DNA of 32,382 bases from Chloroflexota bacterium (GTDB lineage: Bacteria; Chloroflexota; UBA11872; VXOZ01). Shown here in pieces: positions 1,599 to 28,752 of this stretch; within the stretch, counting starts at the first letter, position 1; the number at the start of each line of letters is the position of its first letter. A model generated the notes under the pieces. That model was not told the origin of the DNA and made no database searches. It saw nothing but the letters and a program-made list of their open reading frames with translations. Both the position numbers and the translations under genes were made by a program. Location: NCBI GenBank assembly GCA_009839775.1, contig VXOZ01000005.1, positions 1-32,382 on the forward strand. The letters run 5' to 3'.

Positions 1599-1644
1599 TC
1601 AACCAGGCGGCTGACCGCCGCCACATCACCCAAGGATAGAAGCG

Positions 1645-2030: not shown

Positions 2031-2105
2031 TGGAGCCGACGACGAGACTTGAACTCGTGACCCCATCCTTACCATGGATGTGCTCTACCGCTGAGCTACG
2101 TCGGC
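2031..2105 (-). tRNA. tRNA-Thr (anticodon GGT), copy 1
   Basis: The reverse complement folds as acceptor GCCGACG/CGTCGGC, D arm GCTC-AGCGGTA-GAGC, anticodon stem CATCC/GGATG with loop ATGGTAA (GGT), and T arm ACGAG-TTCAAGT-CTCGT, then T and CCA. It is identical over 75 nt to 3598-3672. Confidence 0.9.
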
Positions 2106-2382
2106 GCAATTTCAAGAATACCATACAAACCGACGGCACGATTCCAGATACCCGCTGACGGAGCAAGCGGGCTTCCCGCATAGGGTCGCTTTCAGAGGAG
2201 GGCAGTACTAAGAATTACTGCAATCCCTTCAAAGCGGCTTTTGTAATTACAAAATATTCAAGTTTGTCGGCAGCGAGTCCTCCGGAGCGAAGCAAAAGCT
2301 TCAAACTCCGGAAAGACTCGCCGCGTCCGCCGGTTTTATCGGACTGAGGAGGGGGTATCCGATCTCGCCCCGGCCGGGGCTT

Positions 2383-2847: not shown

Positions 2848-2955
2848 ATCCGAGAATCGCTCCTCGGATACTGGTATATATTATAACACTTTAGCTTATT
2901 ATTGTAAATAATCTCGGCCATATTGTGCCATTAAGCGCGGCGCAACTCCTCTATA

Positions 2956-3035
2956 TTTGCTTTTTAGGCATAAATGTTATAATATAAACATTGCTCTTTG
3001 ACAACTGAAGATACGGCGATTCATTCAATGAATCG
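2956..3035 (+). promoter_or_regulatory. Promoter plus conserved 5' leader module, copy B
   Basis: TTTGCT (2956-2961), a 16-nt spacer ending in TGT, and TATAAT (2978-2983). The conserved block ...GCTCTTTGACAACTGAAGATACGGCGATTCATTC follows, with hairpin CGATTCA/TGAATCG at 3017-3035. Confidence 0.6.
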
Positions 3036-3111
3036 TACCGGGTCGACCGACTCGGATACTGTCACCCACATATCGCGGCTCGAAGCTGGCCGTTACAAAG
3101 GAGAAAAACCC

Positions 3112-3516
3112 ATGGCTGATAAACCAATCAACGCCGTTGGCGGCAAGGTCGACAAGGGGACTATGGGGCTTCTGTACCCTCTGCCAGTCCTGCTTGTGCT
3201 CATTGCGTGGATGCCATTCGAGAAGCTCGTCTTCAACGAAAACTACTTGGCGTCGTTTGCGGCGGGGTACGCTGTCACCTTGGCGGTGATTGCCATTGCC
3301 TACGAGGTGCTCAGGCGGAAATTCGTCGGCATGGACACCCTCAGCTTCCTGATCGTTCCGGCATTCGGAGCGGCGGGGGCTGCCGGCAACGCGTTCGTTG
3401 CGACAGAAAACTCAGGTAATTTCGCGGCCACCTACGTAGTGGTTGCGAACGCGGGGTTTTTCACGGTCGCAACCATCGTCGCGATCAATTGGGCGGTTAT
3501 CACAAGACTCCGTTGA
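3112..3516 (+). CDS. Hypothetical integral membrane protein (134 aa, about 4 TM)
   Basis: The ATG at 3112 is preceded by AAAGGAGAAAAACCC. The track ORF begins at 2998 with a TTG inside the conserved leader, which I reject. The sequence is very hydrophobic and rich in Ala, Gly and Val. Confidence 0.65.
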   Translation: MADKPINAVGGKVDKGTMGLLYPLPVLLVLIAWMPFEKLVFNENYLASFAAGYAVTLAVIAIAYEVLRRKFVGMDTLSFLIVPAFGAAGAAGNAFVATENSGNFAATYVVVANAGFFTVATIVAINWAVITRLR

Positions 3517-3597
3517 GTCGACGACCCGGTGGCTCCGGTAGCTTTTAGCTGCCGGGGCACACCCCGGAATCAATCGCCGTGTTTTTACATTTTCTTC

Positions 3598-3672
3598 TGG
3601 AGCCGACGACGAGACTTGAACTCGTGACCCCATCCTTACCATGGATGTGCTCTACCGCTGAGCTACGTCGGC
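3598..3672 (-). tRNA. tRNA-Thr (anticodon GGT), copy 2
   Basis: Identical over 75 nt to 2031-2105, with the same fold. The flanking hairpin and pre-tRNA flank are also related to those of copy 1. Confidence 0.9.
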
Positions 3673-3934
3673 CCAGTTTACAGGATATCATAATAACACC
3701 GGCGAGCTGCGTGTCGCGGCGCCGGACAACCTGGCCGCCCCGATGCCGCATGAATTATAAATATAAGATCTTACCGGACAGGAGCGCGGGACGGGTTTCT
3801 TTTCGGATTATACGGCAGGCCCAATCGGCGGATAATTACGTTTTCATGAATTTATACCACAACCAGCACTAACGACCGGGGCCCCTGCGGCTGCGAGAAG
3901 AAATGAATCCTCCCGCAACCGCGGGGCATCGGCC

Positions 3935-4759
3935 TCAGTTGGCCTCGGTCGGCCTCAGAATCGGAAAATCGAAAAGCTCGTCAACGGCGGCGAATACCCT
4001 CTCAATAACTTCGCCCGTTACTTCGTCGGAATGTTTGACGCCGGAGTCGGCCTCGCGCAACAGCTCATCGTACTCCGTCAGAGCCCGGTTGAGTTCTTCT
4101 ACCAACTCCGAGTCGTCGTCAGCCAGCTGAAAAGCCGCCAAATTAGTCCGGCCATTCGGCAAGAATCGGTTTCGCGATTCATACCCCTCGGCCAGCCTGT
4201 TGATGGCTTCGGTCACTTGCTCGGTGCCGGCCGGCGAGTCCGTATGGAAGGCGAAGATTGAGAGCGACTCATTGGAGCTGAGATCGGCTATGATCACGGT
4301 TGCCTCGGTCACGGCATGGTATTCGCAGCCACCACCTCCTTGGCAGGGCTGGTAGTTGAGCGAAACCACTAAGCAACGGTCGGCTTGCTGGCTGATTGTG
4401 CAGTACCCGTCGGCTGCCGCCAAATCTGCGGTTATATTTTCGACATAGGCGTCAGTTTCGGAGAATACCGTCGGCTGCCTAGCTACTTCGTCTAGGGGCG
4501 TCATGGAGAAGTAAACGGGGTGTTGAGGCAATACGTCACGCAGAAGAGCCCAACGCTGTTCCCGACTCAAAAGCCGGCCGTCGTAAGCCGCCTCATTGGC
4601 GATTACGACGCTGAACGCGCCCGGTTTGTCGAACCCAATAACTCCCGCCTCCCATTCTGGTCGGTCTTCGCTACCGCTGCAGGCGGTGCTGGCAATCAGC
4701 AAGATCGCCAACAATAGGCCGACGCCCGGATGCTTGAGTTGCGGAAAAAGACGAGGCAT
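3935..4759 (-). CDS. Putative secreted lipoprotein, function unknown
   Basis: The ATG at 4759 is preceded by AAAGGAGAGG. The N-terminus MPRLFPQLKHPGVGLLLAILLIASTAC has a signal peptide and a lipobox-like STAC. The track ORF extends to 4828 without an RBS. Confidence 0.65.
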   Translation of the reverse strand: MPRLFPQLKHPGVGLLLAILLIASTACSGSEDRPEWEAGVIGFDKPGAFSVVIANEAAYDGRLLSREQRWALLRDVLPQHPVYFSMTPLDEVARQPTVFSETDAYVENITADLAAADGYCTISQQADRCLVVSLNYQPCQGGGGCEYHAVTEATVIIADLSSNESLSIFAFHTDSPAGTEQVTEAINRLAEGYESRNRFLPNGRTNLAAFQLADDDSELVEELNRALTEYDELLREADSGVKHSDEVTGEVIERVFAAVDELFDFPILRPTEAN

Positions 4760-10983: not shown

Positions 10984-11060
10984 AGGGGAGTAGCTCAGTT
11001 GGCTAGAGCATCGGTCTCCAAAACCGAGGGTCGCAGGTTCGAATCCTGTCTCCCCTGCCA
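10984..11060 (+). tRNA. tRNA-Trp (anticodon CCA)
   Basis: Acceptor AGGGGAG/CTCCCCT, D arm GCTC-AGTTGGCTA-GAGC, anticodon stem TCGGT/ACCGA with loop CTCCAAA (CCA), and T arm GCAGG-TTCGAAT-CCTGT, then G and CCA. Base composition changes sharply right after position 11060. Confidence 0.9.
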
Positions 11061-11125
11061 GACATGATGTTTGGCAGAAACATAAGATAACTACACATCT
11101 GTTGAATATAATTTTATGAGGTGTT

Positions 11126-13744
11126 ATGGCTTTTGACTCATCACAAAAATGTGGATCACTGTGGAGAAAGTGGGATATACAAATACAGCCCATAAAAAAT
11201 GCATGGCTTCCTAATCTTGAGAAAAATAAAAATGCAATCAAAAAGGCAACTAGAGAATATCTTCAACAAGCGACAGATGCAGAGATGTCCGTCGTAGCGA
11301 TTACTGATCATAATTGTGGTATGGCCGTAGATGCAGCATTACAAATCATCGAGGAGGAAGGCTGCAACATTAAAGTGCTTCCAGGTGTAGAAATCGATAC
11401 AGAAATTGGATACCAATTACTTATAATTTTTAACCCAGCTTATAGAGAAGCAATCTGTAAAGACACTTGGGAGGACGCCGTGGAGCATTTCTTGAACAAC
11501 ATTTGCAATCTGCCCTCGCCGGTAATTAATATGGACGGTCAAGCCAAGTCCATTGGCGGAGACATTCATGCAGTATTAACCCGCATATGCAAAGAAGATA
11601 TAGGTGTACCCGTTTTTGCGCATTGTCAAAGTGATAAAGGTTTGTTCAAAAAAGCAACGCCCGCTCGTCGTCAAGAGTATTTCAATAATTATCTACAAGG
11701 CAAGTATTACTTTGCGCTTGATCATAAGAGTGATGAAAGCATAGAGGCAACAAAAGAGACTATTAAGGGCTGGGGGATGGACGAGAGTAAATTTGCTTAT
11801 GTGAAGAGTTCTGATTCTCATCAAGCTTCTTTATCGGGATCTGTTTTCTCTTGGATTAAAGCAGATCCTACATTCGAAGGCCTAAGGCAAATTATCTATG
11901 AACCGATGGAGAGGATAAGAATACAGATAGAGGATCCTTCTCTGGAGTACAATAAGCCTTATTTCTCGAAAATTAATATAAAAAAGCAGATTGGGGTATT
12001 TAATCGGAAAGACAATCAGGTTTATCTATCTCAAAACACACTCACCTTGAATAAGAATCTGGTCACAATTATAGGTGGCCGCGGAACCGGTAAGAGTATT
12101 TTAATCGACTATTGGGCGAGCATTTTTGAAAAAAATATATCTGATGAGCCAGAGCGCTATTCCAGCAAAGAAGATTTTTGCATAGAGTACGCTAAAGACA
12201 ATGTGCTCAATCCGAGCACAGAAATCTATTGCGGTAATGGAGAAAATTATCTGGATTTTATTTACATACCGCAATCTCAGTTAAAAGAGGTTTCACAAAA
12301 AGATAGGATTGAGGAAGAGGTGAAGCAGTTATTGGATCTAGAAAACCTGCATTTTTCTCAGAGTTTAAACAGTGAGATCCAAAGCCTCTTGGAAAATATT
12401 AACAAGCTTGATAGCTGGTTTCTAGAAGAGGATGAAAAGGGGAGGCAATGGAATCAGGCAGAATATATCAAAGTTCGCCGAGCTAAGAATGAAAAACTGC
12501 TTCTAAGTATCACAACGCAAGACAATAGAGAGAAGCTCAAAAAGTATACCGATAACATCAGTGCAATAGAAGAGGTAAAAAACAGCCTAAGGTATTTAAA
12601 CGATACTAGCCAAAAGATAGTACAGACGCAAAGAATACTCAATTCAAATATAGACGAGATTAACCTCAGACTATCTTCTATTACAGGATCCAAAAAAATA
12701 GAATCATTATCTTTCAAGAGCCAGCTGGCAAGTATCGAAGAAAACATAGATCTTTTGGGCCGGCAAGAGGAAGAAAAACGAGATGAAAATGAAAAAATCA
12801 AGGCGGATTTTGAAAAAGAGGGCTTTGTTGGGGACTTGGTCAGCCTGCTAAAGAATGCCAGAATGTACCAGGCCAATATTAAGGATGCAGACCAAAGACT
12901 ATCGGTCATAGAGAAGAAGGAGGAGGAACTACAAGAACTTCTTGTTAAGAGAAATAAGCTAGCTTTTAAATTTAAGGATGAGTATGAGAAACAAAAAGGT
13001 AAAATAGATAAGTCATGGCGCGATATTTTAGAAAAACACGAGGGTGCGCATAAAGACCTGATAGAAAGAATTTTACTTAAGGACGGTAGGATATCTGTTG
13101 AGGGGGAAATTGTTTTTGATCAGGGCAAATTTTACGAGAAATTACTTGATATTGTCGATAAGCGCACGTACAAAGATATTGGTGCCTTAAAAGAAAAAGT
13201 AGGGGTATCCAGTTTTGACGACTGGGTGGTGTTTGTAAATGCAGAACTTAAAAATTTTCTGGATAGTGAAGATCCATCTAGATCTGAGAAGATTATGAGT
13301 GTAATTTTTAGCCCTAAAGAACGTAAGGACTACTTGAGGACTACACCTAAAATCAAATATGATAGCAAGAACTTGGATCGCTTATCTGCTGGACAAAGAG
13401 GGACCGTTTACTTATGCCTGAAATTGGCTACGCATGCTTTCTCTAAACCCATTATTTTTGACCAACCAGAGGATGATTTGGATAACCAGTTTATTGTCAA
13501 TGAGCTCATTGGCATATTCAGGCAACTCAAATATTATCGTCAAATCATTATTGCGACTCACAACGCTAACTTAGTTGTTAATGCGGACGCTGAGCAAATA
13601 ATCATCGCAGACAATGTTGATGAAAAACTATTTTACACCTCCGGCTCTCTAGAAAATCCGGCAGTAATAAATAAGGTCTGTAATATCCTAGAAGGTGGCG
13701 AAGAGGCCTTTGAGAGAAGGAAGAATAGATACCATCTCAACTAA
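11126..13744 (+). CDS. PHP-domain / Rad50-SbcC-like ABC ATPase fusion protein (TrlF/PplA-like candidate defence protein)
   Basis: The N-terminal region of about 270 aa carries PHP-like motifs: VAITDHN, PGVEID, VFAHCQSD and SSDSHQ, then WIKADPTFEGL. Walker A is GGRGTGKS (nt 12074-12097). A Lys/Glu-rich coiled-coil insert of about 350 aa follows. The ABC signature is LSAGQRG (from nt 13382), Walker B is IIFDQPEDDLD (13451-13483) and the H-loop is ATHNAN. Confidence 0.8.
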   Translation: MAFDSSQKCGSLWRKWDIQIQPIKNAWLPNLEKNKNAIKKATREYLQQATDAEMSVVAITDHNCGMAVDAALQIIEEEGCNIKVLPGVEIDTEIGYQLLIIFNPAYREAICKDTWEDAVEHFLNNICNLPSPVINMDGQAKSIGGDIHAVLTRICKEDIGVPVFAHCQSDKGLFKKATPARRQEYFNNYLQGKYYFALDHKSDESIEATKETIKGWGMDESKFAYVKSSDSHQASLSGSVFSWIKADPTFEGLRQIIYEPMERIRIQIEDPSLEYNKPYFSKINIKKQIGVFNRKDNQVYLSQNTLTLNKNLVTIIGGRGTGKSILIDYWASIFEKNISDEPERYSSKEDFCIEYAKDNVLNPSTEIYCGNGENYLDFIYIPQSQLKEVSQKDRIEEEVKQLLDLENLHFSQSLNSEIQSLLENINKLDSWFLEEDEKGRQWNQAEYIKVRRAKNEKLLLSITTQDNREKLKKYTDNISAIEEVKNSLRYLNDTSQKIVQTQRILNSNIDEINLRLSSITGSKKIESLSFKSQLASIEENIDLLGRQEEEKRDENEKIKADFEKEGFVGDLVSLLKNARMYQANIKDADQRLSVIEKKEEELQELLVKRNKLAFKFKDEYEKQKGKIDKSWRDILEKHEGAHKDLIERILLKDGRISVEGEIVFDQGKFYEKLLDIVDKRTYKDIGALKEKVGVSSFDDWVVFVNAELKNFLDSEDPSRSEKIMSVIFSPKERKDYLRTTPKIKYDSKNLDRLSAGQRGTVYLCLKLATHAFSKPIIFDQPEDDLDNQFIVNELIGIFRQLKYYRQIIIATHNANLVVNADAEQIIIADNVDEKLFYTSGSLENPAVINKVCNILEGGEEAFERRKNRYHLN

Positions 13745-13749
13745 AGAGA

Positions 13750-16700
13750 TTAGAGATTTCTATATTTCTTAAAACTCTCTACCTGTTCAAAGATTTCCTT
13801 ATACACCTCGTCACGATCAACAGGGGGATAGTTGTGGTCAGCTAGTAAAACAATAAGATTGGCTTTCAATTCCGCTTTGATATCTTCACGCTTATCCCAG
13901 GCAGCGTATCTGGTTTTGCTGTCAACTAGTGATTTGACCGATTTAGCAAGATTAACTAATTTATCGTCGGGGTACTCAAAATTATATTTGACTGTTAGGG
14001 CTTTTAGGATGTCGTAAAATGCCTTCTCTTCGACTACGATTCCGAGTTTTTTGAAGGAGTGGTATTCTTCCTTAAGGTTATGGATGAGGTCGACGATTTC
14101 ATTTGTAAAATCCTCGACAACTTCACTGACCAACATATCTTCTTTACGCTTGTTGTATTTATCCACTAATACTTTAAGTTTTTGCGAGAAATCAATGCTC
14201 TTGATTTTGTTCACTTTCTTGAAATCATCAATGGCTTTGGAAAGCAGTCGTTGAAGTAGTTTAAGTTTAGTATTGGGTAGTTGTATCTGCTCTATTTTTT
14301 GCAGGTACTTATCATCAAAAACATCAATCTTAGCTGTTTGATCCTCGCTTAATTTTAAAATTTCCTCAATTCCTTCACTCTTCAAGGCTTCTTGTATCAT
14401 TGCGCTCACGCGTTTGTTCATTTGGGCAGCATCAGGGGCTTCACCTTTAGTCAATTTATATATGATGGAGCGGATAGCTAGGTAAAAATGAATGCGATCC
14501 CGCTCTTTATCTGAAAATGAATGTGAATCACCGCTACAGATATTGTATGCAGCCTTCATGCGCTTTACGAGACGCATAAAACGCCTCTCGATATCATACG
14601 TAGTCTGTGCGTATTCAGCGGCCATATTGAGTGTATGCAGCTGCTCGACGGGTGAACCATCGAAATATTTTGAACCATCAAATTTGTGAAAGATTTTATC
14701 CAGTAAATGCAAATGATCCTTTACTATCACTACAGACTGTTGGATATCTTCGATATTGCCAAGGCTTGTCTTATCATATTGCGCCAATGCCAGATTCATT
14801 TGCTTTTTGATACCGATATAATCTACGACAAGCCCCTTAATTTTGCCGCCAGCCTTGCGGTTGACGCGCGAAATAGTTTGAATCAGCGTATGTTTTTGAA
14901 TGGGTTTATCCAGATACATCGTATCGAGGAAAGGTACGTCAAAGCCGGTCAACCACATATCGACTACGATAGCTATACGGAAGTTTGATTTTATAAACTT
15001 GAATTGACGATCTAGCTCCTTGCGGTCTGCCTTGGTGCCAAGCATGGAATATAATGCCGGGTCATCGTCTTGGTTCCGGGTCATAACCAATTTTATGCGC
15101 TCCATAGGCTTGATTTCGCGCTTTTCTCTTTCACTCAGTTCAATGCCATCTGCCGCGAATTCAACTTCCACCCATTCAGGTCGTAATGCGATGATTTCTT
15201 TGTATAACGAGTAGGCAATTTGTCTACTACTCGAAACGAATAACGCCTTGCCAGCAATGGTCGCGTTTTCTTTGATACGGTTTTCATAATGCTCCACGAA
15301 GTCTGCTGCCAGCGAACGGACACGATCAGGGTCGCCCAAAATCATGGATAATTTGGTATTGGCTTTTTTGCTTTCTTCTATTTGATATTCACTAGCGCCG
15401 GCCTCTGCAGCTTGAGCGTAATACTTCTCAATTTCTCTTAATTTACTATTGTCCAGCAGCACCTTTGCTGCACGTCCCTCATATGTAATATCCACGGTGA
15501 TTTCATCTTTCACTGATTCCCGCATAGTATAACTATCGACCACTTCGCCAAAAACATCTAACGTAGCATCTATTGGCGTGCCTGTGAAACCGACATAAGT
15601 CGCATTGGGTAGCGAATCATGTAAGTACTTAGCAAATCCATATGAGCGTTGCACGCCGTCAGAAGTGACGACAACTTTCTGATCAAAATTCACCTGACTG
15701 CGATGAGCTTCGTCGGATATGCAGATTACATTACTGCGACCACTTAGCAAACTGGCCTTTTCAGAGAATTTCTGGATAGTGGTAAGGAATACTCCGCCAC
15801 TTTGGCGATTCTTCAGAGATTCATGTAGTTGAGAACGGCTGTCAATACTGAAGATAGTGGAATCTCCAATAAATGTCTTAGCGTTAGTAAAAAGTCCGGC
15901 CAATTGGTCATCCAAATCGGTACGGTCAGTAATCAGCAGGATTGTAGGGCTCTCAAAATCTACGCTTTTCATCAATAAGCGTGCAAGGTAAAGCATTATG
16001 TAGCTTTTACCGCTGCCGGTCGCACCAAAATATGTACCACCGCGGCCGTCACCGCTGGGGCGCCGATGCTCTTTAATATTCTCGTACAATTTGGTTGCGG
16101 CATAGAACTGCGGATATCGGCAAACAATCTTCTCCTCCTTATTGGTTGTATCGGGAAAATAAATGAAGTGCTGAATTACTTCTCTCAGGCGCGTTTTATC
16201 AAAAAGGCCTTCTATCATAGTATATAGAGATTTAATACCGTCGCATTCAAACACCTCTGCGCCATCAGTTTTACGCCATGCATAAAAGAATTCGTAAGGG
16301 GCAAAGAATGACCCCATTTTTGTGTTTGCACCATCACTGATAACGCAGAATGCATTGTACTTGAATAGCGTTGGTATATCCCTGCGATAACGATTAGTTA
16401 ATTGAATATAGGCATCATGCAATGTGGTGTTTTCACGTATGGCGCTCTTGAACTCGAAAACCACCAACGGTATTCCATTTATGTATAAAACACAGTCCGG
16501 TATGCGAGTCTCAAATCCCCTTATTTCAAGCTGATTTATGATTTTATAGATATTTTTATCGCTATTAGAATAGTCAATCAGCTCAATATAAAGATCCTTT
16601 TTATTGTGATCCTCTCGCTTCAGTAAAAAACCATCTGATATCTGGCGCATAATTTTCTTATTACTGCCATACAAATCTGATTCTGGTAGTAGCTTAAGCT

Positions 16701-16899
16701 CGCGTAGTATGGAGGAAATTTCGCTATCAGTAATACCGTCAGATGCATAGCGTCCCGACAGGTACTTGCGTAAATCATCGGCTAATAATACCTCGGTCAA
16801 TTTACGATCTATATCATCTCCACAAACATGTGTGATATTTTGCTCACTGAGTAGTGAGATGATAGCTTGTTCTAATTTTTCTTCCGTAAATTTCTGCAT
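13750..16899 (-). CDS. hsdR: Type I restriction enzyme R subunit (endonuclease/helicase)
   Basis: 1049 aa. The N-terminal PD-(D/E)xK region is IPDCVLYINGIPLVVFEFKS. SF2 helicase motif I is GATGSGKS and motif II is DEAH (ISDEAHRSQ). There is a long helical C-terminal domain. The gene is last in the M-S-R operon. Confidence 0.93.
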   Translation of the reverse strand: MQKFTEEKLEQAIISLLSEQNITHVCGDDIDRKLTEVLLADDLRKYLSGRYASDGITDSEISSILRELKLLPESDLYGSNKKIMRQISDGFLLKREDHNKKDLYIELIDYSNSDKNIYKIINQLEIRGFETRIPDCVLYINGIPLVVFEFKSAIRENTTLHDAYIQLTNRYRRDIPTLFKYNAFCVISDGANTKMGSFFAPYEFFYAWRKTDGAEVFECDGIKSLYTMIEGLFDKTRLREVIQHFIYFPDTTNKEEKIVCRYPQFYAATKLYENIKEHRRPSGDGRGGTYFGATGSGKSYIMLYLARLLMKSVDFESPTILLITDRTDLDDQLAGLFTNAKTFIGDSTIFSIDSRSQLHESLKNRQSGGVFLTTIQKFSEKASLLSGRSNVICISDEAHRSQVNFDQKVVVTSDGVQRSYGFAKYLHDSLPNATYVGFTGTPIDATLDVFGEVVDSYTMRESVKDEITVDITYEGRAAKVLLDNSKLREIEKYYAQAAEAGASEYQIEESKKANTKLSMILGDPDRVRSLAADFVEHYENRIKENATIAGKALFVSSSRQIAYSLYKEIIALRPEWVEVEFAADGIELSEREKREIKPMERIKLVMTRNQDDDPALYSMLGTKADRKELDRQFKFIKSNFRIAIVVDMWLTGFDVPFLDTMYLDKPIQKHTLIQTISRVNRKAGGKIKGLVVDYIGIKKQMNLALAQYDKTSLGNIEDIQQSVVIVKDHLHLLDKIFHKFDGSKYFDGSPVEQLHTLNMAAEYAQTTYDIERRFMRLVKRMKAAYNICSGDSHSFSDKERDRIHFYLAIRSIIYKLTKGEAPDAAQMNKRVSAMIQEALKSEGIEEILKLSEDQTAKIDVFDDKYLQKIEQIQLPNTKLKLLQRLLSKAIDDFKKVNKIKSIDFSQKLKVLVDKYNKRKEDMLVSEVVEDFTNEIVDLIHNLKEEYHSFKKLGIVVEEKAFYDILKALTVKYNFEYPDDKLVNLAKSVKSLVDSKTRYAAWDKREDIKAELKANLIVLLADHNYPPVDRDEVYKEIFEQVESFKKYRNL

Positions 16900-16911
16900 T
16901 GCTATACTTGT

Positions 16912-18030
16912 CTAGGTATTCTGCGTTACGCCGCGTATAAGCACGGGTGCGATGGCATGAAGCTTAGTTCTCAAAGCCTCATTGAGGCGCTTACGAGTTT
17001 CAAGCACACGATGCATGGCGACAATAGATTTTTGCACTTTTATACTTGGGATGGGTAGGGATACTCGGCACATATCATCCCAGTTGAATGTCTCGCGAGC
17101 GCTCCCCCAAGAATGAAAGCGAGCATACCGATTAAACTCGGGTCTTTTCACCCATAGTAGCAGAAATTCAGGCAACAATTTTTGGCTATCTATGACTTCA
17201 AAGACAGTGTAGATACTTGAAACGATAACAATGTTAGAGTGCATGAGCGCCATTGCAATCTTATCACCACGGCGAGAAGTATCTGCTACGTAAGCAAATT
17301 GCTGGGGTCTAACTATCTTATATAGAGATAAATCAAGTTTGCCCTGCTTAGCCTTAGAATGTATAAATTCTTTTGAAGTAGAAATACCTCTAAGATCTGT
17401 GATTTCCAAATCTTGATTTCTGACATCAACCTGTCGGATGTGATCGGCTAACTTTTGTCTGGGTGTTACTTTTGCTAACTCTTCCATAAATGTATTTATG
17501 ATAGACTCCAGGCTGTCAAGGCTCTCCTCGTGGGATCTTTGCAATTGCAAAAGGGAATGATACACAGAGGAATAACACTCCTGTATTTTAGGAGTTGGGA
17601 CAGGTATTGGGATGTCACAGAAACGGCTCCATTCCAAGCTGGCACGAATACTGGAATCACATACATAGCTACAGTATCTATCAAATTCAGATCTTAGGAA
17701 GATAAGCATTAAATAAGCTGGCAGAAGCCCATCTCCTTGATTTATTGCGAATATTTTGTATGCAGGAGATACAATCGCAGGCTTCTTGCTATCATACAAA
17801 GCCACGCCAAGTCGATTATCTCTTCCGATCTGCATTAGGTTGATGAGGAATTGGTTCTTCTGTATTATCTGGTATTTAGATAGGTCAGTTTCTGATAAAT
17901 TGGCAACTGTAGGAATATATTTTTTATTAATACTTATGCCCAATACTTGAGTAATAGTACTTCCGCTGTTGCGCTCATCCACTAAAGAAATGTAGTCGCC
18001 TAGGCGTTTGTCATTCGAGCTCATATCCAA
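16912..18030 (-). CDS. hsdS: Type I restriction-modification S (specificity) subunit
   Basis: 372 aa with two variable target-recognition regions separated by helical conserved regions: a central ...YHSLLQLQRSHEESLDSLESIINTFMEEL and a C-terminal ...AMHRVLETRKRLNEALRTKL. It overlaps the hsdM stop by 20 nt. Confidence 0.88.
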   Translation of the reverse strand: MDMSSNDKRLGDYISLVDERNSGSTITQVLGISINKKYIPTVANLSETDLSKYQIIQKNQFLINLMQIGRDNRLGVALYDSKKPAIVSPAYKIFAINQGDGLLPAYLMLIFLRSEFDRYCSYVCDSSIRASLEWSRFCDIPIPVPTPKIQECYSSVYHSLLQLQRSHEESLDSLESIINTFMEELAKVTPRQKLADHIRQVDVRNQDLEITDLRGISTSKEFIHSKAKQGKLDLSLYKIVRPQQFAYVADTSRRGDKIAMALMHSNIVIVSSIYTVFEVIDSQKLLPEFLLLWVKRPEFNRYARFHSWGSARETFNWDDMCRVSLPIPSIKVQKSIVAMHRVLETRKRLNEALRTKLHAIAPVLIRGVTQNT

Positions 18031-19570
18031 GTTCTTTGAATGCCTGTATTAATTCCTTGCGCGCCGCTTGTTCAACTTTGAGTAATTCTGAGAATTCAAC
18101 TTGCATACGTCGCATCTCCTTGTCAAAATCTATGCCGGAGTCACGGTCTACAAATTCTATATACCTACTTGGTGTAAGCGAGTAATCGTTAGCTTTCACT
18201 AAATCTAAACCTGCAACATAGCAAAATTCTGGCACATCTCTGTAAGCGTGGTTCTCTTGCCAGCTGTGGTATGTAGTTGATACTTTAGTAATCTCGTCTT
18301 CTGTAAGCTGGATGTATTTCTTTTCATATTCAGACCCCCAAGTGCGTAAATCCACGAACAGGATCTTGCCAGATCTGTCCTTTAGGTTGCGAATTCTTTG
18401 TGGCGTATTGATCTGACGCTCTTTCTTGTTTTTATTGATAACCCAGAGTGTTACGCTAATATCCGTTGAATAAAATGTGTCGCGTGGCAGTGTAATAATC
18501 GCTTCAATCAGATCATTCTCTATTAGTTTTTTGCGAATATTAAGCGTGTCAGCATCGTTCAGCGCGCCATTAGCCAATAGAAAGCCTGCAACACCATTCT
18601 CGGAAAGTTTAGAGACCATATGCAGAATCCAGCCATAATTGGCATTACTGGCTGGCGGTACATCGTAACCGGACCAGCGAGGGTCATCTATCAGCTCATC
18701 TTCTCCTCGCCAAGCTTTGAGATTGAATGGAGGGTTTGCCATAATGTAATCTGCTTTGAGGTCGGGATGCTGATCTTTAGCAAAACTGTCCGCGGGCTTA
18801 TTGCCTAGGTCAGCAGAAATACCGCGAATTGCTAAGTTCATTTTTGCGAGTTTGTAGGTCGTGGCAATTTGCTCTTGGCCGTATATGGCGATATCTTTCT
18901 TATCTCCCCGATGCGCTTCTACGAACTTCACAGATTGTACAAACATGCCACCGGTTCCGCAACAGGGATCGTAGATTATACCTTTGTATGGTTCAATCAT
19001 TTCAGCGATAAGATTGACGATACATTTAGGTGTGTAGAATTCGCCTTTCATGTTCTTTTCCGCAATGGAAAATTGTTTGAGGAAATATTCATACACTCTG
19101 CCGACAATATCTTGTGATTCGTTCGCTAGGGTATCTATGTTGTTATTGATCTCATCTAGCAGGGAAGCAAGCTTGCTAATTTCCAAGTTAAGCCGAGAAA
19201 AATAATTATCTGGCAGAGCTCCTCTGAGTGATGAATTAGATTTCTCTATGTTGTGTAATGCAGTGTCAATCTTTGCGGCAATGTCTGTCTGTTTGGCGTT
19301 TTGCATAATGTATTGCCATCTGCATTCAGGCTCCAAATAGAAGACATTGTCCTTAGTATAAAATTCTACTCTGTCGAGGTATTGTTCCTTGCCTTCAGCA
19401 GCAAGCCTTCTGCGCTGCCTCTCGAATGTGTCACTGGCGTACTTTAAGAAAATAAGACTCAGCACAACGTGCTTGTATTCGCCCGGCTCTATGCTGCCGC
19501 GAAGTTTATTTGCTGCTTCCCACAGAGTTTCTTCAATACCTTTTTGCTTCTTGGAAGTTTGTTTCGCCAT
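18011..19570 (-). CDS. hsdM: Type I restriction-modification M subunit (N6-adenine DNA methyltransferase)
   Basis: N-terminal HsdM helical domain (LWEAANKLRGSIEPGEYKHVVLSLIFLKY), SAM motif IYDPCCGTGGMF and catalytic NPPF (MANPPFNL). The track start at 19579 is a GTG; I prefer the ATG at 19570 (MAKQTSKK...). Confidence 0.92.
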   Translation of the reverse strand: MAKQTSKKQKGIEETLWEAANKLRGSIEPGEYKHVVLSLIFLKYASDTFERQRRRLAAEGKEQYLDRVEFYTKDNVFYLEPECRWQYIMQNAKQTDIAAKIDTALHNIEKSNSSLRGALPDNYFSRLNLEISKLASLLDEINNNIDTLANESQDIVGRVYEYFLKQFSIAEKNMKGEFYTPKCIVNLIAEMIEPYKGIIYDPCCGTGGMFVQSVKFVEAHRGDKKDIAIYGQEQIATTYKLAKMNLAIRGISADLGNKPADSFAKDQHPDLKADYIMANPPFNLKAWRGEDELIDDPRWSGYDVPPASNANYGWILHMVSKLSENGVAGFLLANGALNDADTLNIRKKLIENDLIEAIITLPRDTFYSTDISVTLWVINKNKKERQINTPQRIRNLKDRSGKILFVDLRTWGSEYEKKYIQLTEDEITKVSTTYHSWQENHAYRDVPEFCYVAGLDLVKANDYSLTPSRYIEFVDRDSGIDFDKEMRRMQVEFSELLKVEQAARKELIQAFKELGYELE

Positions 19571-19697
19571 GCCTAACACATTATATCTTTTAATCAGTGA
19601 AACTAGAAGCCTGACAGCAAGGTATACGGGCAGTTTCTGTTACTATAACCTCAAAGCTTTCGAGCTGGCGCTCCAAGGATTCTAATGCCAAAAAGAT

Positions 19698-19729
19698 GGG
19701 GCTGCACCCAGACTTTACGTTACCTGCCA
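19698..19729. repeat. Repeat R1 (diverged copy of the 31-bp hairpin repeat)
   Basis: GGGGCTGCACCCAGACTTTACGTTACCTGCCA matches R3 at about 24-25 of 31 positions. Weaker similarity extends about 20-25 bp upstream, from 19678. Confidence 0.6.
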
Positions 19730-19838
19730 TAATTGGGAATTGCGCTTCTCGGGGTGCTAGGGCAACATTTGGGGTTATTAGACTTGGGCATCCGGATTGT
19801 GATACACTCTGGCTAATCGAGTTTGGGTAGGTGTGCGT

Positions 19839-20090
19839 ATGAAGAATGAAGGTTCAGAGATGAAACAAATCGAAGGGATAGGATGCCTTGATTGCAGCCG
19901 CACCAATTACGCCGTCAAGGCTATGTTCGAGGGGTCTCGTGAAGGGAATTACTATGTGACTTTGTTTTTGGAGTGCAAAGATTGTGAAAGAATAAACAAA
20001 GTTCTCTTCTCGGATTCCGAGGATATTCTGCAGGAGTGGCAGGATATCTTCACAACAGCAAATAGAATACTCGAGATACCTGAAGGTTAG
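19839..20090 (+). CDS. Small zinc-ribbon-like hypothetical protein
   Basis: Two CxxC pairs (CLDC ... CKDC) about 26 residues apart. The start is uncertain: GTG 19833, ATG 19839 or ATG 19860. Confidence 0.5.
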   Translation: MKNEGSEMKQIEGIGCLDCSRTNYAVKAMFEGSREGNYYVTLFLECKDCERINKVLFSDSEDILQEWQDIFTTANRILEIPEG

Positions 20091-20129
20091 CAGCCCCCTA
20101 CCTTTGCCTTTGGTGTTACGTAGTATATA

Positions 20130-20148
20130 CCCCCCCCCCGGGGGGGGG
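20130..20148. repeat. C10-G9 homopolymer palindrome
   Basis: The sequence is TATAC CCCCCCCCCC GGGGGGGGG TATT: ten C (20130-20139) directly followed by nine G (20140-20148). It ends 2 nt before the -35 box of the TA-1 promoter. Confidence 0.9.
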
Positions 20149-20150
20149 TA

Positions 20151-20179
20151 TTGACTGGAGTGCACACAAGGTGTATAAT
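20151..20179 (+). promoter_or_regulatory. Near-consensus sigma70 promoter of toxin-antitoxin operon 1 (leaderless)
   Basis: TTGACT (20151-20156), an exactly 17-nt spacer and TATAAT (20174-20179). Only 7 nt (TCGTAAC) separate the -10 box from the ATG at 20187. Confidence 0.75.
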
Positions 20180-20186
20180 TCGTAAC

Positions 20187-20480
20187 ATGAATAAAGTAGT
20201 TGTGAATATCAAGGTCGATCAGGAGACCAAGAAAGCAGCTCAGGCATTGGCTAACGATCTGGGTCTGACTCTTAGCGGCCTTGTCAATGCTCAGTTGAAG
20301 CAGTTAGTCAGGCAGCAGCAGCTGGTATTGTACGCCACTTATCCTGAGCAGCCCATGAGTCCTAAATTAGAGGCTGAGCTGGATCAAGTCTATGGAGAGA
20401 TCGAGCGTGGAGATGTCAGCCAGCCTCACGCCAGTCTGGACAGTTTTCTCGATGATTTAAACCAGCTTCCAAGCGAATGA
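20187..20480 (+). CDS. Type II antitoxin, DinJ/RelB (ribbon-helix-helix) family, copy 1
   Basis: MNKVVVNIKVDQETKKAAQALANDLGLTLSGLVNAQLKQLV is a DinJ/RelB-type N-terminus and is a paralogue of 22585..22869. Its stop overlaps the toxin start (ATGA). I prefer the internal ATG over the track start at 20151, which lies in the promoter. Confidence 0.8.
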   Translation: MNKVVVNIKVDQETKKAAQALANDLGLTLSGLVNAQLKQLVRQQQLVLYATYPEQPMSPKLEAELDQVYGEIERGDVSQPHASLDSFLDDLNQLPSE

Positions 20481-20740
20481 TTGTCCGTTACAGCAAAAGA
20501 TTCCAAAAACAATTCCATTCACGATTATCCCCCAAAATGAGGCAGCAGTTCGGGCGACGACTGGAGCTGTTTTTAGCTAATCCGCGACATTCTCGACTGA
20601 ACGTCCATTCCTTGTCCGGGAAGTATGCCGGTTGCTGGAGCATGAATGTGAGCGGTGATGTCAGAGCGATCTTCGAGTATCAGGGCAGCCAAGCGGTAAT
20701 ACTGTTTTTAGTGATCGGCACGCACGCTCAGCTTTATTAA
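20477..20740 (+). CDS. Type II toxin, YafQ/RelE (ParE/RelE superfamily) mRNA interferase, copy 1
   Basis: 87 aa. The pattern ...HSLSGKYAGCWSMNVSGDVRAIFEY...VIGTHAQLY resembles the YafQ/RelE C-terminus (L.G...G......D.R.I....GTH..L). It is translationally coupled to the antitoxin. Confidence 0.8.
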   Translation: MIVRYSKRFQKQFHSRLSPKMRQQFGRRLELFLANPRHSRLNVHSLSGKYAGCWSMNVSGDVRAIFEYQGSQAVILFLVIGTHAQLY

Positions 20741-20819
20741 ACCCCAGTATCTAGGCATAGATCACAGGAAATCTGCCCAGTATCATCTTCAATAACGTCG
20801 AATCCCTTGATCCGCCGCT

Positions 20820-21120
20820 CTAAATCCTGAAACGCCAACGGGACAGGGTTGCACCCAAGCTTTGTCTGGCCTGCCAAGTATCGAGAAACCGCTTAATTCG
20901 ATTCGTATAGTTTTTATTTGATTTTTCCAGGTTAAACCGCTTGGCTTTCAATTGCCTGATAAGTTTGACGCGGCCAACACCGACTGGTCGTACCAGTGAT
21001 ATCTGGAACCGGCAATGTCGCCCCCGTCTGAGCATCTTCGAGCGGTTGCAGATACTTGAACCGATCGCGCTTGCGGGTAATCGCCCGCAGATAGCCGGAC
21101 TGCGACAGGATAAGGTCCAT
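20820..21120 (-). pseudogene. Frameshifted, 5'-truncated gene remnant (helix-hairpin-helix-like; identity unknown)
   Basis: Two overlapping minus-strand ORFs in different frames (20932..21120 and 20820..21035) read through as MDLILSQSGYLRAITRKRDRFKYLQPLEDAQTGATLPVPDIT / PVGVGRVKLIRQLKAKRF.... The GVG-containing segment resembles an HhH motif. There is no promoter or RBS. Confidence 0.4.
20846..20876. repeat. Repeat R2 (31-bp hairpin repeat)
   Basis: GGGTTGCACCCAAGCTTTGTCTGGCCTGCCA is identical to R3 at 28 of 31 positions. It lies inside the 3' end of the minus-strand gene remnant. Confidence 0.8.
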
Positions 21121-21226
21121 CAGTAAAATGCCAGGGTTGATTAAGCTCTCAATTATTTGGTTTTAGTAATTGAAACAGGTGTAAGCTTTTTGATACAATA
21201 GCCGCAATGTTTGCCAAGGAGTTTTT

Positions 21227-22291
21227 ATGGGGTTTGTGTCGGGTTTGAAGGGTGTTTTAAAAAGTCGGGTCGGTCGGCGAATTATAATTTTTTCTTTGTT
21301 ACTGGTGGCGTTGTTCAGCTTTTTCCCAATCGCCAACGCCCAGGCCTCAGCCGGCAACAGTTTCACTTTGGAAGAAATCGATCCCCAGCCGGACAACGAC
21401 AACCACACCCGATGGCAGTACCGGGTGGTAGCCCAGACAGCTCCGGGCGGTTTCAGCCGCTGGCAAGACAGCCCCTGGTACTGGCGCCACCGTGCCAGCG
21501 ACGAGTGTGATAACACCGGCTCCCTGTTCCGGGTCGACCCCAACTCTCCGGACACCGAGGTCTCAGCCGATGGCGGTACGGTGACAGTGAACGTCTACGC
21601 GAGAGCTAACAGCGTCTGGGTTTGTTTTGCCTTGCGTTGCGATGACGGCACCTACATTTACGCCAAGATGAAAAACACCCAGAAGATGCAAACGGTTGTC
21701 AGCGACTCTTGCGCACAGAGCGAACCGGAAGACGACCCCCCGAGGCGAAACAACGACAACGACGACAATGAGCCTCCCATCGAGGAACCTGAAGAAGAGG
21801 ATGAGGTTGTTGTCGACCCTCCGAACAATAATGGCAACAACCAGAACAACAACGGCAACAATTCTCCGTCGCAGCAAACCCAAACTGACGACAGTCAGAA
21901 TCAACCCCAGCAAGAGGCCGAGACCCAAACTGATACGGAGGAGAAAGATGACGAAAATCCGTCACAGCCGCCAGTTCCTCAGCCGCCGGCTGAAGAGCCA
22001 GTCCAGACGGTGACGGCGGTCGCCCAGACGCCGTCGAGCGAAGAAGCTGACGCCACACCGGGCGATGCCGACAAAGACCCGGACGCCTCCTCGCGGCAGC
22101 CAGTGCCGGCTGAAGAAGATTCAATCCGTCCGGCCTCGACCCCTAGCGAGCCGGCCGACGACGAGGATGACGGTCTGTCTTACGGTTGGATTATCGCCGG
22201 AATCGCCGCTACGGCCATCGTCATCGCTCTCTTCTTCTGGCTGCGTCGCCGAGGCAACAACCAAAACGGCAGCAACCGGGGCGATATCTAG
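21227..22291 (+). CDS. Secreted, C-terminally membrane-anchored surface protein with a long acidic/Asn/Pro/Gln low-complexity stalk
   Basis: AAGGAG lies 5 nt upstream of the ATG. The signal peptide is ...FFPIANAQA. A Cys-containing globular domain of about 130 aa is followed by a low-complexity region of about 150 aa (about 21720-22190), then a C-terminal TM helix WIIAGIAATAIVIALFFWL and RRRG. Confidence 0.8.
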   Translation: MGFVSGLKGVLKSRVGRRIIIFSLLLVALFSFFPIANAQASAGNSFTLEEIDPQPDNDNHTRWQYRVVAQTAPGGFSRWQDSPWYWRHRASDECDNTGSLFRVDPNSPDTEVSADGGTVTVNVYARANSVWVCFALRCDDGTYIYAKMKNTQKMQTVVSDSCAQSEPEDDPPRRNNDNDDNEPPIEEPEEEDEVVVDPPNNNGNNQNNNGNNSPSQQTQTDDSQNQPQQEAETQTDTEEKDDENPSQPPVPQPPAEEPVQTVTAVAQTPSSEEADATPGDADKDPDASSRQPVPAEEDSIRPASTPSEPADDEDDGLSYGWIIAGIAATAIVIALFFWLRRRGNNQNGSNRGDI

Positions 22292-22504
22292 GCGCCCCGA
22301 AATCCACTGGTTGGCCTGGTGCTGCAAGATCAAGATTCGCGTCCCTGCCTAGCTCACATACCGGGGAGCCAAAGAGGCTCCCTGTCAGAAGTCCATTTAT
22401 CAGACTTGGAGGACGAAGATTATTGGCAGATCATGCGGGAGGCTCGCGAACGGATCAACTGAAAATGCCGTTCCGTTCCAGATTTTGGAGTGCCGACTAA
22501 AATG

Positions 22505-22535
22505 GGGTTGCACCCAGACTTTGTCTGGCCTGCCG
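22505..22535. repeat. Repeat R3 (31-bp hairpin repeat, best-preserved copy)
   Basis: The sequence is GGGTTGCACCCAGACTTTGTCTGGCCTGCCG. It contains the perfect hairpin CCAGAC-TTT-GTCTGG and a smaller GGGT-TGC-ACCC hairpin. It sits about 50 bp upstream of TA operon 2. Confidence 0.8.
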
Positions 22536-22584
22536 CATAGTCAGTTTGCAAATGTCTAATACTTAATATACACTGAGTATTGAT

Positions 22585-22869
22585 ATGGCTAATACAGTTA
22601 TTACTATCAAGATTGATCATGAGACCAAAAAGGCGGCCAAAGAGCTGGCGGCCGATGCCGGTCTGACTTTGAGCGGCTTGGTCAATAGTTATTTGAAACA
22701 GGTGACAGCTACCAGGCATATTGACCTACGCATACCACAGAAAATGACACCTAAAATGGAAGAATTGTTGGATGAAGCTGAAAAAGATATAGCTGCAGGG
22801 AAGGTTATCGGTCCTTTCAATGATGCCGACGAGGCTATTAAAGCCCTCAAGGCAGAGAAAGCAGACTGA
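22585..22869 (+). CDS. Type II antitoxin, DinJ/RelB family, copy 2
   Basis: MANTVITIKIDHETKKAAKELAADAGLTLSGLVNSYLKQV is clearly homologous to 20187..20480. Confidence 0.8.
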   Translation: MANTVITIKIDHETKKAAKELAADAGLTLSGLVNSYLKQVTATRHIDLRIPQKMTPKMEELLDEAEKDIAAGKVIGPFNDADEAIKALKAEKAD

Positions 22870-22877
22870 CGAGCGGC

Positions 22878-23135
22878 ATGGATGTCTCGTTCGCCAGTAG
22901 ATTCATCAAGCAGTTCAATAAACTACCGGACAAAAGCCAGCAACGGTTTAACAGCCGCCTGAAGCTTTTCATGAGCGACCAGCACCATGTTCTTTTACGC
23001 CGGCATGCGCTCAAGGGCAAATACGCCGGCTACTACAGCATCGATATCTCAGGTGACCTAAGGGCAGTTTTCAGGTATAACTCGAGGGGCTCCGTTATTT
23101 TCTCGTTGATCGGCACTCATTCTCAACTGTATTAG
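22878..23135 (+). CDS. Type II toxin, YafQ/RelE family, copy 2
   Basis: 85 aa. ...HALKGKYAGYYSIDISGDLRAVFRY...LIGTHSQLY is homologous to 20477..20740. It starts 8 nt after the antitoxin stop. Confidence 0.8.
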   Translation: MDVSFASRFIKQFNKLPDKSQQRFNSRLKLFMSDQHHVLLRRHALKGKYAGYYSIDISGDLRAVFRYNSRGSVIFSLIGTHSQLY

Positions 23136-23230
23136 ACAGATTCGATAAACATACTATACTGCTGCATTACGGATTGCAGGCCGAAGCGCGCCTTGCCTGA
23201 ATCATCAAATGACATGGTAAACTTAAAGGG

Positions 23231-24076
23231 ATGATTTCAAAGATGGCGACTAAAAAGATTCTGTTCGTAAGCCTCTTCGTTCTGCTTGCGCTAATCATTA
23301 TGGTGTTTGTTGTCAGTATGATGGTTAGGGATGAAACCGGTCAAGAAGAGACTGCCGGTCAGAGCGAAGGCGACAGTTCGCCGAGCGGAGCACGCGAATA
23401 TTCCAGGGAAGAGCTGGAGGATATTTTGGCGAGCTCTGAGCCTACTTCTTCAGAAAAACGGATCGACATAAATAAATTTTGCTCGCAGAACTCAGATGAG
23501 TGTCTAGCTTTAGTCGGCTATCCGCGCAGTGAGTTGTTGGGGCCGCGTGCCGACAAACTGGAGGCAGAGGGAGATTTTTGCGGAGAGTATCGGTTTAGTT
23601 TTGGCGGGGGGCCGATCGGGGAGCATCAGTACAGGATATGCGGAGACGAGCAGGCGTACGAACGCTGGCAGGCATTTGCGGCGGACATTGAAGAACTTGA
23701 CTCTCAGCTGGATGCCGAATTTCCCTCTACTAGCGGCAAAGCCGCTTGGCAGGCTTATTTAGACGCTTACGATGCGTTGGTGTTAGAGATGGACAAGGAA
23801 TACCCAGGCATCAAGGACGTGGACTGGGATAATTTGAAAGACGGGGAATGGGAGCGTTTCATGAACTACGAAGAAGAATTTGAGGCCAAGCACGAAGAGA
23901 TAAGATACCAACACGGCTTAGTAAGTAAGCTGGGGCAACTTGAAATCGACCCTGCTAAAGAGGAAATATTGATAAAAAGAGCTGAAGCGGGTCAAGAACG
24001 GTTTTGGGAGCTATGGGTTAAACATAGGGTTACATATTCTGTCTCCCATGGAATTGCAATTTATTTCGTAAAGTAA
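23231..24076 (+). CDS. Hypothetical N-terminally membrane-anchored protein (281 aa)
   Basis: An N-terminal TM helix (ILFVSLFVLLALIIMVFVVSMMV) is followed by an acidic linker and a Trp/Glu-rich soluble domain. No recognisable family. Confidence 0.6.
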   Translation: MISKMATKKILFVSLFVLLALIIMVFVVSMMVRDETGQEETAGQSEGDSSPSGAREYSREELEDILASSEPTSSEKRIDINKFCSQNSDECLALVGYPRSELLGPRADKLEAEGDFCGEYRFSFGGGPIGEHQYRICGDEQAYERWQAFAADIEELDSQLDAEFPSTSGKAAWQAYLDAYDALVLEMDKEYPGIKDVDWDNLKDGEWERFMNYEEEFEAKHEEIRYQHGLVSKLGQLEIDPAKEEILIKRAEAGQERFWELWVKHRVTYSVSHGIAIYFVK

Positions 24077-28605: not shown

Positions 28606-28752
28606 CTATATTCAGATGGTAGCTATTTTGGGCAGAAACGTCAAATCACCCCATTTTGGTGCGATATTGTATATAACCCCCCCCCATTACGTGCCCTGTA
28701 CTTTTATAAGATTATATAGTATAACTAGAACAATTAATAAAAGGAGGCGGTC

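Follow-up and report, generated by a model that had tools for sequence, protein, structure and literature searches.

Organization of the locus

The sequence analysed here, referred to as the window, is a 32 kb stretch (32,382 nucleotides, nt) of contig VXOZ01000005.1 from a Chloroflexota bacterium (assembly GCA_009839775.1), and the element in question is a short direct repeat that occurs in it three times, in copies named R1, R2 and R3 from left to right. All copies lie on the strand of a tRNA-Trp gene, 8.6–11.5 kb downstream of it. A low-GC island carrying a type I restriction-modification (R-M) system starts directly after tRNA-Trp and ends at hsdM (19579); directly next to this end lies the first of two 46-codon open reading frames (ORF46-1) together with R1. 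An earlier annotation made from the DNA letters only (hereafter the sequence-only reading) had described a layout of four gene blocks parted by the repeats, and this layout is indeed present: the repeats lie between the R-M island, a zinc-ribbon-like ORF with a first toxin-antitoxin (TA) operon, a stretch with a surface-protein gene, and a second TA operon (Table 1). The modules measure 1.1–1.7 kb, except for the R-M island at 8.7 kb, which alone deviates sharply in GC content, the GC steps at R2 and R3 not being crisp. Each copy stands head-to-head with the next plus-strand gene or operon, at 105 nt (R1), 350 nt (R2) and 50 nt (R3) from its start. The two TA operons are paralogues with 43% and 48% amino acid identity, and when their flanks were compared for shared cassette ends, homology was found to be confined to the coding regions.

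Table 1. Features of the repeat region and of the adjoining island (window coordinates).
Feature	Position	Strand	Remarks
tRNA-Trp(CCA)	10984..11060	+	Left border of low-GC island; 3′ end ...CCTGTCTCCCCTGCCA
Module 1, low-GC (38–43%) defence island	11061..19589		TrlF/Ppl-like PHP+AAA ATPase and type I hsdR/S/M
TrlF/Ppl-like PHP+AAA ATPase	11126–13744	+	
Type I hsdR/S/M	13750–19579	-	
ORF46-1, 46 codons (MAGNVKSGCSPIFLALESLERQLESFEVIVTETARIPCCQASSFTD)	19590..19730	-	First 12 codons = R1; stop 11 nt from hsdM GTG start (19579)
R1 core, AAGATGGGGCTGCACCCAGACTTTACGTTACCTGCC+A	19693..19729	+	Distal end of low-GC R-M island; 36-nt family member 19693–19728
Module 2 cargo	19833..20740	+	Zinc-ribbon-like ORF 19833–20090; RelB/YafQ-type TA operon 1, 20187–20740
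ORF46-2, 46-codon paralogue, TTG start (..AGQTKLGCNPVPLAFQDLERRIKGFDVIEDDTGQISCDLCLDTGV)	20737..20877	-	First 12 codons = R2; stop overlaps yafQ-1 stop
R2 core, GGGACAGGGTTGCACCCAAGCTTTGTCTGGCCTGCC+A	20840..20876	+	36-nt family member 20840–20875
Module 3 cargo	20878..22291	+	349-nt stretch (the 'remnant' of the sequence-only reading and a promoter-like site), then membrane-anchored protein gene
Membrane-anchored protein, 354 aa, Pro/Asp/Asn-rich, low-complexity	21227–22291	+	Surface-protein gene of the sequence-only reading
Partial third ORF copy at R3	22420..22551	-	About 12 core codons (AAGQTKSGCNPI) homologous; tail unrelated
R3 core, AAAATGGGGTTGCACCCAGACTTTGTCTGGCCTGCC+G	22499..22535	+	36-nt family member 22499–22534; flanks unrelated to R1/R2 on both sides
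RelB/YafQ-type TA operon 2	22585..23135	+	Starts 50 nt right of R3

A repeat search of the window returns a 36-nt direct repeat family of three members, all on the plus strand, and an nhmmer profile built from the copies finds exactly three sites in the 32 kb (E 1e-11 to 1e-21, everything else at E of about 1 or above). With up to 3 mismatches allowed, the 30-mer matches R2 and R3 only and has no match in 100 dinucleotide shuffles. The three same-orientation copies reported by the sequence-only reading are confirmed by these searches, its 30- and 31-nt cores lying within 1 nt of the 36-nt coordinates. R2 and R3 are identical at 28 of 30 positions of the inner core, at 28 of 31 with the next base included (the figure given before) and at 29/36 over the whole core. 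R1 matches R3 at 29/36 over the core and, by direct reading, at 24/30 over the 30-mer, and R1 matches R2 at 24/36; R3 is thus the most consensus-like core, with 29/36 to each of the others. The copies are not an artefact of assembly, since the ENA scaffolds and the Logan contigs, two further assemblies from this sample, run collinear with the window across R1, R2 and R3.

The likeness between the copies is one-sided. To the right of ...CCTGCC they are unrelated, whereas R1 and R2 can be aligned without gaps for ~103 nt further to the left (52/103), R1 and R2 being 55% identical over 141 nt. An upstream extension of weaker similarity, which had been proposed as ~25 bp long at each copy, thus exists for R1 and R2, where it is longer, and does not hold for R3, whose left flank matches the others at random level (26–27/103). 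Expressed as percentages, the flanks of R3 share 25–26% (left) and 25–32% (right) of positions with those of the other copies, both values random, and the identity between R2 and R3 has sharp edges on both sides.

Two paralogous 46-codon ORFs begin in the repeat

Read on the minus strand, the core forms the first codons of a short ORF at R1 and at R2 (ORF46-1 and ORF46-2). The two ORFs are of equal length and stop at the same aligned position, and a 38-residue alignment of their products shows 47% identity and 71% positives (E 1e-9 in a search of the window in translation). Scored with BLOSUM62, the aligned R1 and R2 translations reach 84 in the ORF46 frame as against 10–57 in the other five, a value that none of 5000 column shuffles attains. 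In the tail, i.e. outside the core, the proportion of synonymous differences (pS) is 0.84, which is saturated, and that of nonsynonymous differences (pN) is 0.43 (Fisher p 0.0009); judged by this pattern, it is well supported that the R1 and R2 tails evolve like coding sequence. At R3, GCG occupies the aligned position of the start codon, with a possible TTG start 5 codons upstream. It is well supported, then, that two old, paralogous ORFs of 46 codons open with R1 and R2, and that R3 is a copy of the core only. A further ORF of 47 codons (22319–22462, plus strand; ..HLSDLEDEDYWQIMREARERIN) lies opposite the tail of the R3 ORF and has no family match.

The core itself departs from the pattern of the tails, with a pS of 0.24 between R1 and R2 over codons 2–12 as compared with 0.84 in the tail (p 0.006). 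Because the synonymous sites of the core are conserved and R3 keeps the core only, between flanks that are random on both sides, the core would appear to be constrained or homogenised at the level of DNA, through selection on the nucleotide sequence or through recombination. On the evidence of these substitutions, the ~36-bp segment is either under selection as DNA or the product of copying or recombination that left sharp edges. A uniform decay of pseudogenes is excluded by the same observations, namely the low core pS and the consensus-like core of R3 between random flanks.

These data may also be explained by ordinary paralogous small genes, i.e. a lineage-specific, acidic, Cys-containing protein of 46 residues encoded at R1 and R2, with R3 degraded and the repeat representing the N-terminal motif AG(Q/N)(T/V)Kx GCxP(I/V). 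The nucleotide identity would then stem from short-patch gene conversion, and the position of the copies between modules would be incidental. In agreement with such an explanation are the coding-type substitutions, the equal ORF lengths and the shared stop, as well as the overall divergence of the ORF46 pair (pS 0.68, pN 0.40), a level that the two RelB/YafQ operons also show (pS 0.65–0.80, pN 0.37–0.42) and that fits old paralogues of similar age. Against it, no homologue of the ORF46 product was found in Pfam, NCBIfam, PADLOC, PHROGs or PDB, and a profile search of 1.84 billion representative proteins gave four spurious matches only, all of them repeat-protein artefacts. The ORFs are uncalled in public assemblies, no sigma-70-like promoter or Shine-Dalgarno sequence was found upstream of them, and the AlphaFold model of the product is uninformative (predicted local distance difference test score, pLDDT, 49.6). 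The ATG and TTG starts at R1 and R2 carry little weight, since reverse-complementing ...CCA plus a following T or A produces them near-automatically. Finally, the consensus-like core of R3 between random flanks is poorly explained by decay, or by conversion in the absence of flanking homology. On balance, we regard plain small genes as a serious alternative account of the repeat, though a less probable one than the junctions discussed below.

The repeat is unlikely to be the 3′ end of a protein-coding target gene

The sequence-only reading had offered a different coding interpretation, in which the repeat derives by duplication from the 3′ end of a protein-coding target gene, the gene surviving as a frameshifted remnant at 20820–21120 and its end being copied at each insertion. 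The minus-strand translations that it quoted for R2 and R3 are correct: R2 is traversed by a minus-strand ORF of 71 codons, and in the equivalent frame an ORF of 13 codons terminates within R3. The geometry would also be possible, as the 3′ ends of recombinase genes overlap the attachment (att) site in related islands. The frame in question (..WQARQSLGAT..), however, meets a stop codon within the R1 core and differs from the conserved frame, in which the core is the 5′ and not the 3′ end of an ORF. A search for the intact homologue with which the 20820–21120 stretch was to be compared found none in Pfam, NCBIfam or PHROGs nor, with a frameshift-repaired composite, among 5.8 billion proteins, and the stretch has no likeness to the recombinases of the relatives described below. 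Moreover, the extended homology of R1 and R2 lies on the other side of the core. An origin from a target-gene end is therefore very improbable.

Hairpins, RNA structure and known repeat classes

The repeat had also been described as hairpin-forming. The palindrome CCAGAC-TTT-GTCTGG is perfect in R3 only, degraded in R2 (CCAAGC-TTT-GTCTGG) and without any 3′ arm in R1. When 66-nt segments around the copies were folded as single-stranded DNA, the z scores of both strands (-0.64 to +0.93) were indistinguishable from those of shuffled sequences. The consensus fold of 106-nt segments reaches -6.3 kcal/mol with a covariation term that is positive, i.e. unfavourable, and no covariation is seen. No Rfam family matches at the repeats (E up to 10), and a structured RNA element, another possibility raised by the sequence-only reading, is left with neither a stable fold nor covariation.

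Similar considerations apply to the known classes of hairpin repeats, which comprise the attC sites of integrons, including clusters of attC sites lacking integron integrases (CALIN), palindromes related to repetitive extragenic palindromic (REP) sequences or miniature inverted-repeat transposable elements (MITE), Xer/dif-type sites and intrinsic terminators. Chromosomal integron arrays consist of small co-oriented modules that include TA operons, and the modules of the window are alike; R3, in addition, holds two perfect small palindromes. The resemblance to CALIN extends to units of ~1–1.7 kb that are mostly co-oriented, contain TA operons and orphan ORFs, and are each followed by a conserved site. 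In contrast to CALIN, the copies lack the R″/R′ core sites, the imperfect palindrome, the bottom-strand hairpin and an associated IntI, and the site overlaps the 5′ end of a coding sequence. No RYYYAAC/GTTRRRY core pair spaced 50–150 nt apart occurs on either strand of 19400–23400, no hairpin is conserved, and no integron integrase, which a CALIN can do without, is encoded among the 30 ORFs scanned; an integron-like cassette site, as had been envisaged, and the attC/CALIN assignment are rejected accordingly. As for REP- or MITE-like elements, no terminal inverted repeats bracketing the copies were found, the palindrome is perfect in one copy only, and a search of the collections listed below found no dispersed copies of the kind that the sequence-only reading had named as evidence against itself. 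A Xer/dif-type site was rejected on the grounds that the palindromes are not conserved among the copies, and none of the terminator-like sites coincides with a repeat; no T-run follows the stem. The repeat, furthermore, has three copies only, all within 2.9 kb, and is absent from the remaining 29.5 kb of the window, from ten other loci scanned and from the databases searched. Membership in a known hairpin class is thus largely refuted already and hardly credible, and the repeat need no longer be read as a hairpin, an attC site or a structured RNA.

A role as a regulatory motif in cis was weighed as well. In this case, the core would be a protein-binding site, a translation-initiation region or the antisense-RNA target of a small ORF, reused before three divergent gene groups. 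Such a motif would be kept at the nucleotide level, synonymous sites included, as the core is, and could act from the head-to-head position of each copy; R3 also adjoins the promoter region of TA operon 2. The distance to the downstream promoters nevertheless varies, the TA operon 1 promoter (20151–20179) has no copy nearby, the palindromes are not shared by all copies, none of the window's genes encodes a candidate regulator, and neither RNA structure nor covariation is seen. We consider a cis-regulatory motif unlikely.

The core ends in a likeness of the tRNA-Trp 3′ end

Over their last 14–16 nt, the 3′ ends of the cores (...TTTGTCTGGCCTGCCA; ...TTTGTCTGGCCTGCC(A)) resemble the 3′ end of tRNA-Trp, ...CCTGTCTCCCCTGCCA. 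With the alignment anchored at the end of the repeat, R2 matches the last 16 nt of tRNA-Trp at 12 positions, R3 at 11 and R1 at 9, whereas the other four tRNAs of the window match at 7 at most. Among the 991 CCA-ending sites in the window, 4 (~0.4%) match the 13 nt that precede the CCA of R2 as well as tRNA-Trp does, tRNA-Trp and R2 themselves being included in the 4. When up to 2 mismatches are allowed, the last 14 nt match at 4 sites as against 0.24 expected, one of these sites being the end of tRNA-Trp. These trends provide moderate evidence for a link between the core and tRNA-Trp, and not proof of it.

Relatives of the locus and of its genes

The core sequence is without relatives in any collection searched. 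A strict DNA pattern gave no match in 596 Gb of genome contigs or in JGI metagenome contigs, and relaxed and codon-degenerate patterns gave three chance matches in viral contigs (L011, L012 and L020), of which the first two show no likeness beyond the pattern and the third lies inside a 621-aa ORF. Nothing was found by blastn against plasmids and phages. A tblastn-confirmed locus search with the ORF alignment yielded one chance match, antisense within a glycosyltransferase gene of Christensenellales, and none in metagenomes or viruses. The core is likewise absent from ten loci that were scanned individually, seven from related genomes (L007–L010 and L014–L016) and three from other search matches (L011–L013). 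Exact matches for six proteins of the window come from sample SAMN12347673 only.

Relatives of individual genes were available at two levels. The TauE relatives (70% identity; L007–L010, on contigs of ~0.1–0.9 Mb) are not syntenic with the window, the context being different and both tRNA-Trp and the repeat being absent. The closest relatives of HsdM (L014, L015 and L016; 73–75% identity) are encoded by hsdMSR operons in islands whose starting point is a tRNA 3′ end, that of tRNA-Glu in L014 and L015 and that of tRNA-Gln in L016, and which encode serine recombinases of 421–562 aa. In L014 and L015, the stop codon of the recombinase gene lies inside the tRNA gene, and the 13.7-kb island of L016 ends with 26 nt that repeat the terminus of tRNA-Gln (25/26). 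Neither the core nor ORF46 is present in these three islands. The right edge of R2 (CTGCCA/AGTATCG, 20870–20883, the slash marking the edge) agrees at 11 of 13 positions with the junction of tRNA-Gln and island in L016 (CAGCCA/AGTATTG, 4168–4181), a match that may be due to chance or to a shared preference for att flanks.

The copies as possible junctions of stacked modules

Taken together, we tentatively favour the possibility that the three copies are att-type junction sequences of small modules that accreted downstream of tRNA-Trp, each module ending in a small ORF, although we place this somewhat short of an even chance. Each copy would represent the conserved right-hand end of an accessory module stacked downstream of tRNA-Trp. 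Such an end would comprise ~36 bp kept at the nucleotide level and finishing in a look-alike of the tRNA-Trp 3′ terminus (TGTCTnnCCTGCCA), and would at the same time supply codons 1–12 of a short ORF directed leftwards, into the module, this ORF being complete (46 codons) at R1 and R2 and reduced to the core at R3. The arrangement could have arisen by serial site-specific integration, or by accretion, at the 3′ terminus of tRNA-Trp or adjacent to it, the copies being attR-type junctions. The modules (the R-M island, the zinc-ribbon ORF with TA operon 1, and the surface-protein gene) would be integrase-less remnants of the cis-mobilisable type, whose recombinase was either lost or is encoded elsewhere in the genome. 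Recombination at the core, the order of the insertions and any role of the 46-residue product are inferred. By analogy, the junction layer would correspond to the architecture that the related R-M islands display in canonical form. The proposal of att-like scars made by the sequence-only reading thereby survives in part: the core kept at the nucleotide level, the sharp edges shared by R2 and R3, the tRNA-Trp-like end and the position of related R-M islands at tRNA ends speak for it, while its original form, a target-gene 3′ end, is not supported.

Several observations weigh against this assignment. The likeness to tRNA-Trp is short, and GG in place of CC would break two pairs of the acceptor stem; R1 shares only CCTGCCA with tRNA-Trp, and the right flanks of tRNA-Trp and of R1–R3 are not convincingly alike. 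A local-alignment scan that is not anchored at the repeat end gives no significant result and does not rank tRNA-Trp first, with two other loci outscoring it for R2 and 4% of segments scoring at least as high as tRNA-Trp for R3. A Pfam scan of the 30 ORFs across the window found no recombinase or integrase domain, no trace of the serine recombinases of the relatives was detected in the window by tblastn, and no dyad symmetry common to all copies was found. At 1.1–1.7 kb the modules are very small. The lack of relatives of the core in the collections searched counts in the same direction, as do the exact-protein look-ups, which lead back to one sample only and so offer no second genome with the sequence and no population variant. 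Finally, the plain paralogous small genes discussed above are a strong rival and the main one.

A more specific version of the junction assignment may be formulated, in which the core is the recombination site of an undescribed mini-cassette platform in bacteria with small genomes (similar to the candidate phyla radiation, CPR). A recombinase acting in trans would stack integrase-less cassettes of 1–2 kb, with TA, defence or surface genes, at a tRNA gene, and every cassette would end in a 46-codon ORF overlapping the recombination site. After excision as a circle, ORF46 would come to lie directly downstream of the other end of the element, and its product could be a directionality or regulatory factor. 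This extended form we regard as quite improbable.

Comparison with known island and module systems

The pdif modules of Acinetobacter plasmids are small, often carry TA systems and are set off by short recombination sites on which a recombinase from another location acts. The pdif sites are 28-bp XerC/XerD sites with an 11-6-11 dyad and occur as inverted pairs. The modules described here resemble them in size, in their TA content and in their position between short sites; the copies differ from pdif sites in being direct and in lacking a conserved dyad.

Insertion with long target duplication has been described for R-M units (Furuta et al. 2010, PMC2853133), and the direct repeats of >30 bp, the inserted defence-type units without mobility genes and an R-M unit of deviant GC content are features that the locus has in common with it. 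In that system, the insert lies between two near-identical copies, whereas the R-M island of the window has a one-sided copy, R1 and R2 are only 55% identical over 141 nt, and the 28/30 identity of R2 and R3 extends over only 30–36 bp; no genome with an empty site was found. Long target duplication therefore fits poorly, on account of the one-sided copy and the low R1/R2 identity.

The closest parallels are found in the ssrA islands of Dehalococcoides, which are tandem, bounded by direct repeats, in some cases integrase-less and cis-mobilisable, and formed by accretion, and in which the att repeat may sit in a gene at the island edge (PMC3146451). As in these tRNA/tmRNA-type islands, short repeats of the same orientation are spaced along an accessory region just downstream of a tRNA-type gene and part unrelated cargo modules, some of which lack an integrase. 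Additional conserved sequence flanks each repeat upstream but not downstream, the repeat can lie in a gene at the island edge, and the canonical form, a serine recombinase with a repeat of the tRNA end, is present in the related genome of L016. Unlike the repeats of such islands, however, the repeat of the window reproduces the tRNA 3′ end imperfectly (no more than 12/16, with only 7 nt common to the three copies and the tRNA), no integration module lies in the window, all modules other than the 8.7-kb R-M island are only 1.1–1.7 kb long, and any mobility is putative.

Further features of the window

Directly upstream of the TA operon 1 promoter (TTGACT-17-TATAAT) lies a homopolymer palindrome, C10G9 (20130–20148), within a longer inverted repeat (20114–20187). 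Two other assemblies of the same sample break at this site, one of them reading C8G9, and the tract may be prone to slippage or difficult to sequence. A look-alike, TTTGGTG..TGTATATA(A)C9, is found at 28655–28685, and poly-C runs occur at the start of the window (20–55). In TA operon 2, a 17-nt inverted repeat (15/17) joins 22583–22599 and 23125–23141, which coincide exactly with the opening codons of relB-2 and the closing codons of yafQ-2, the equivalent in TA operon 1 being weaker; it could reflect 5′–3′ pairing of the operon mRNA, or chance. The YafQ-like toxin genes (20477–20740 and 22878–23135) are not among the genes called on public contigs, and the exact product of yafQ-1 is not on record. 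Near the left end of the window, a tandem duplication of ~1.5 kb (1519–3697) contains two tRNA-Thr(GGT) genes with identical scores on the minus strand (2031–2105 and 3598–3672), as well as repeated promoter-like TATAAT...TTGACA motifs.

Implications

The repeat is lineage-specific and its arrangement is of a known type, such that its novelty is limited. If it is merely an orphan pair of small genes with a fragment, the outcome is an annotation note on two uncalled 46-codon ORFs. If, on the other hand, the copies are junctions of modules, the locus would show that very small genomes build a defence and TA region from tiny integrase-less modules beside a tRNA gene, with one short site being reused, and the core together with ORF46 would provide a sequence tag by which such modules may be traced in related genomes.

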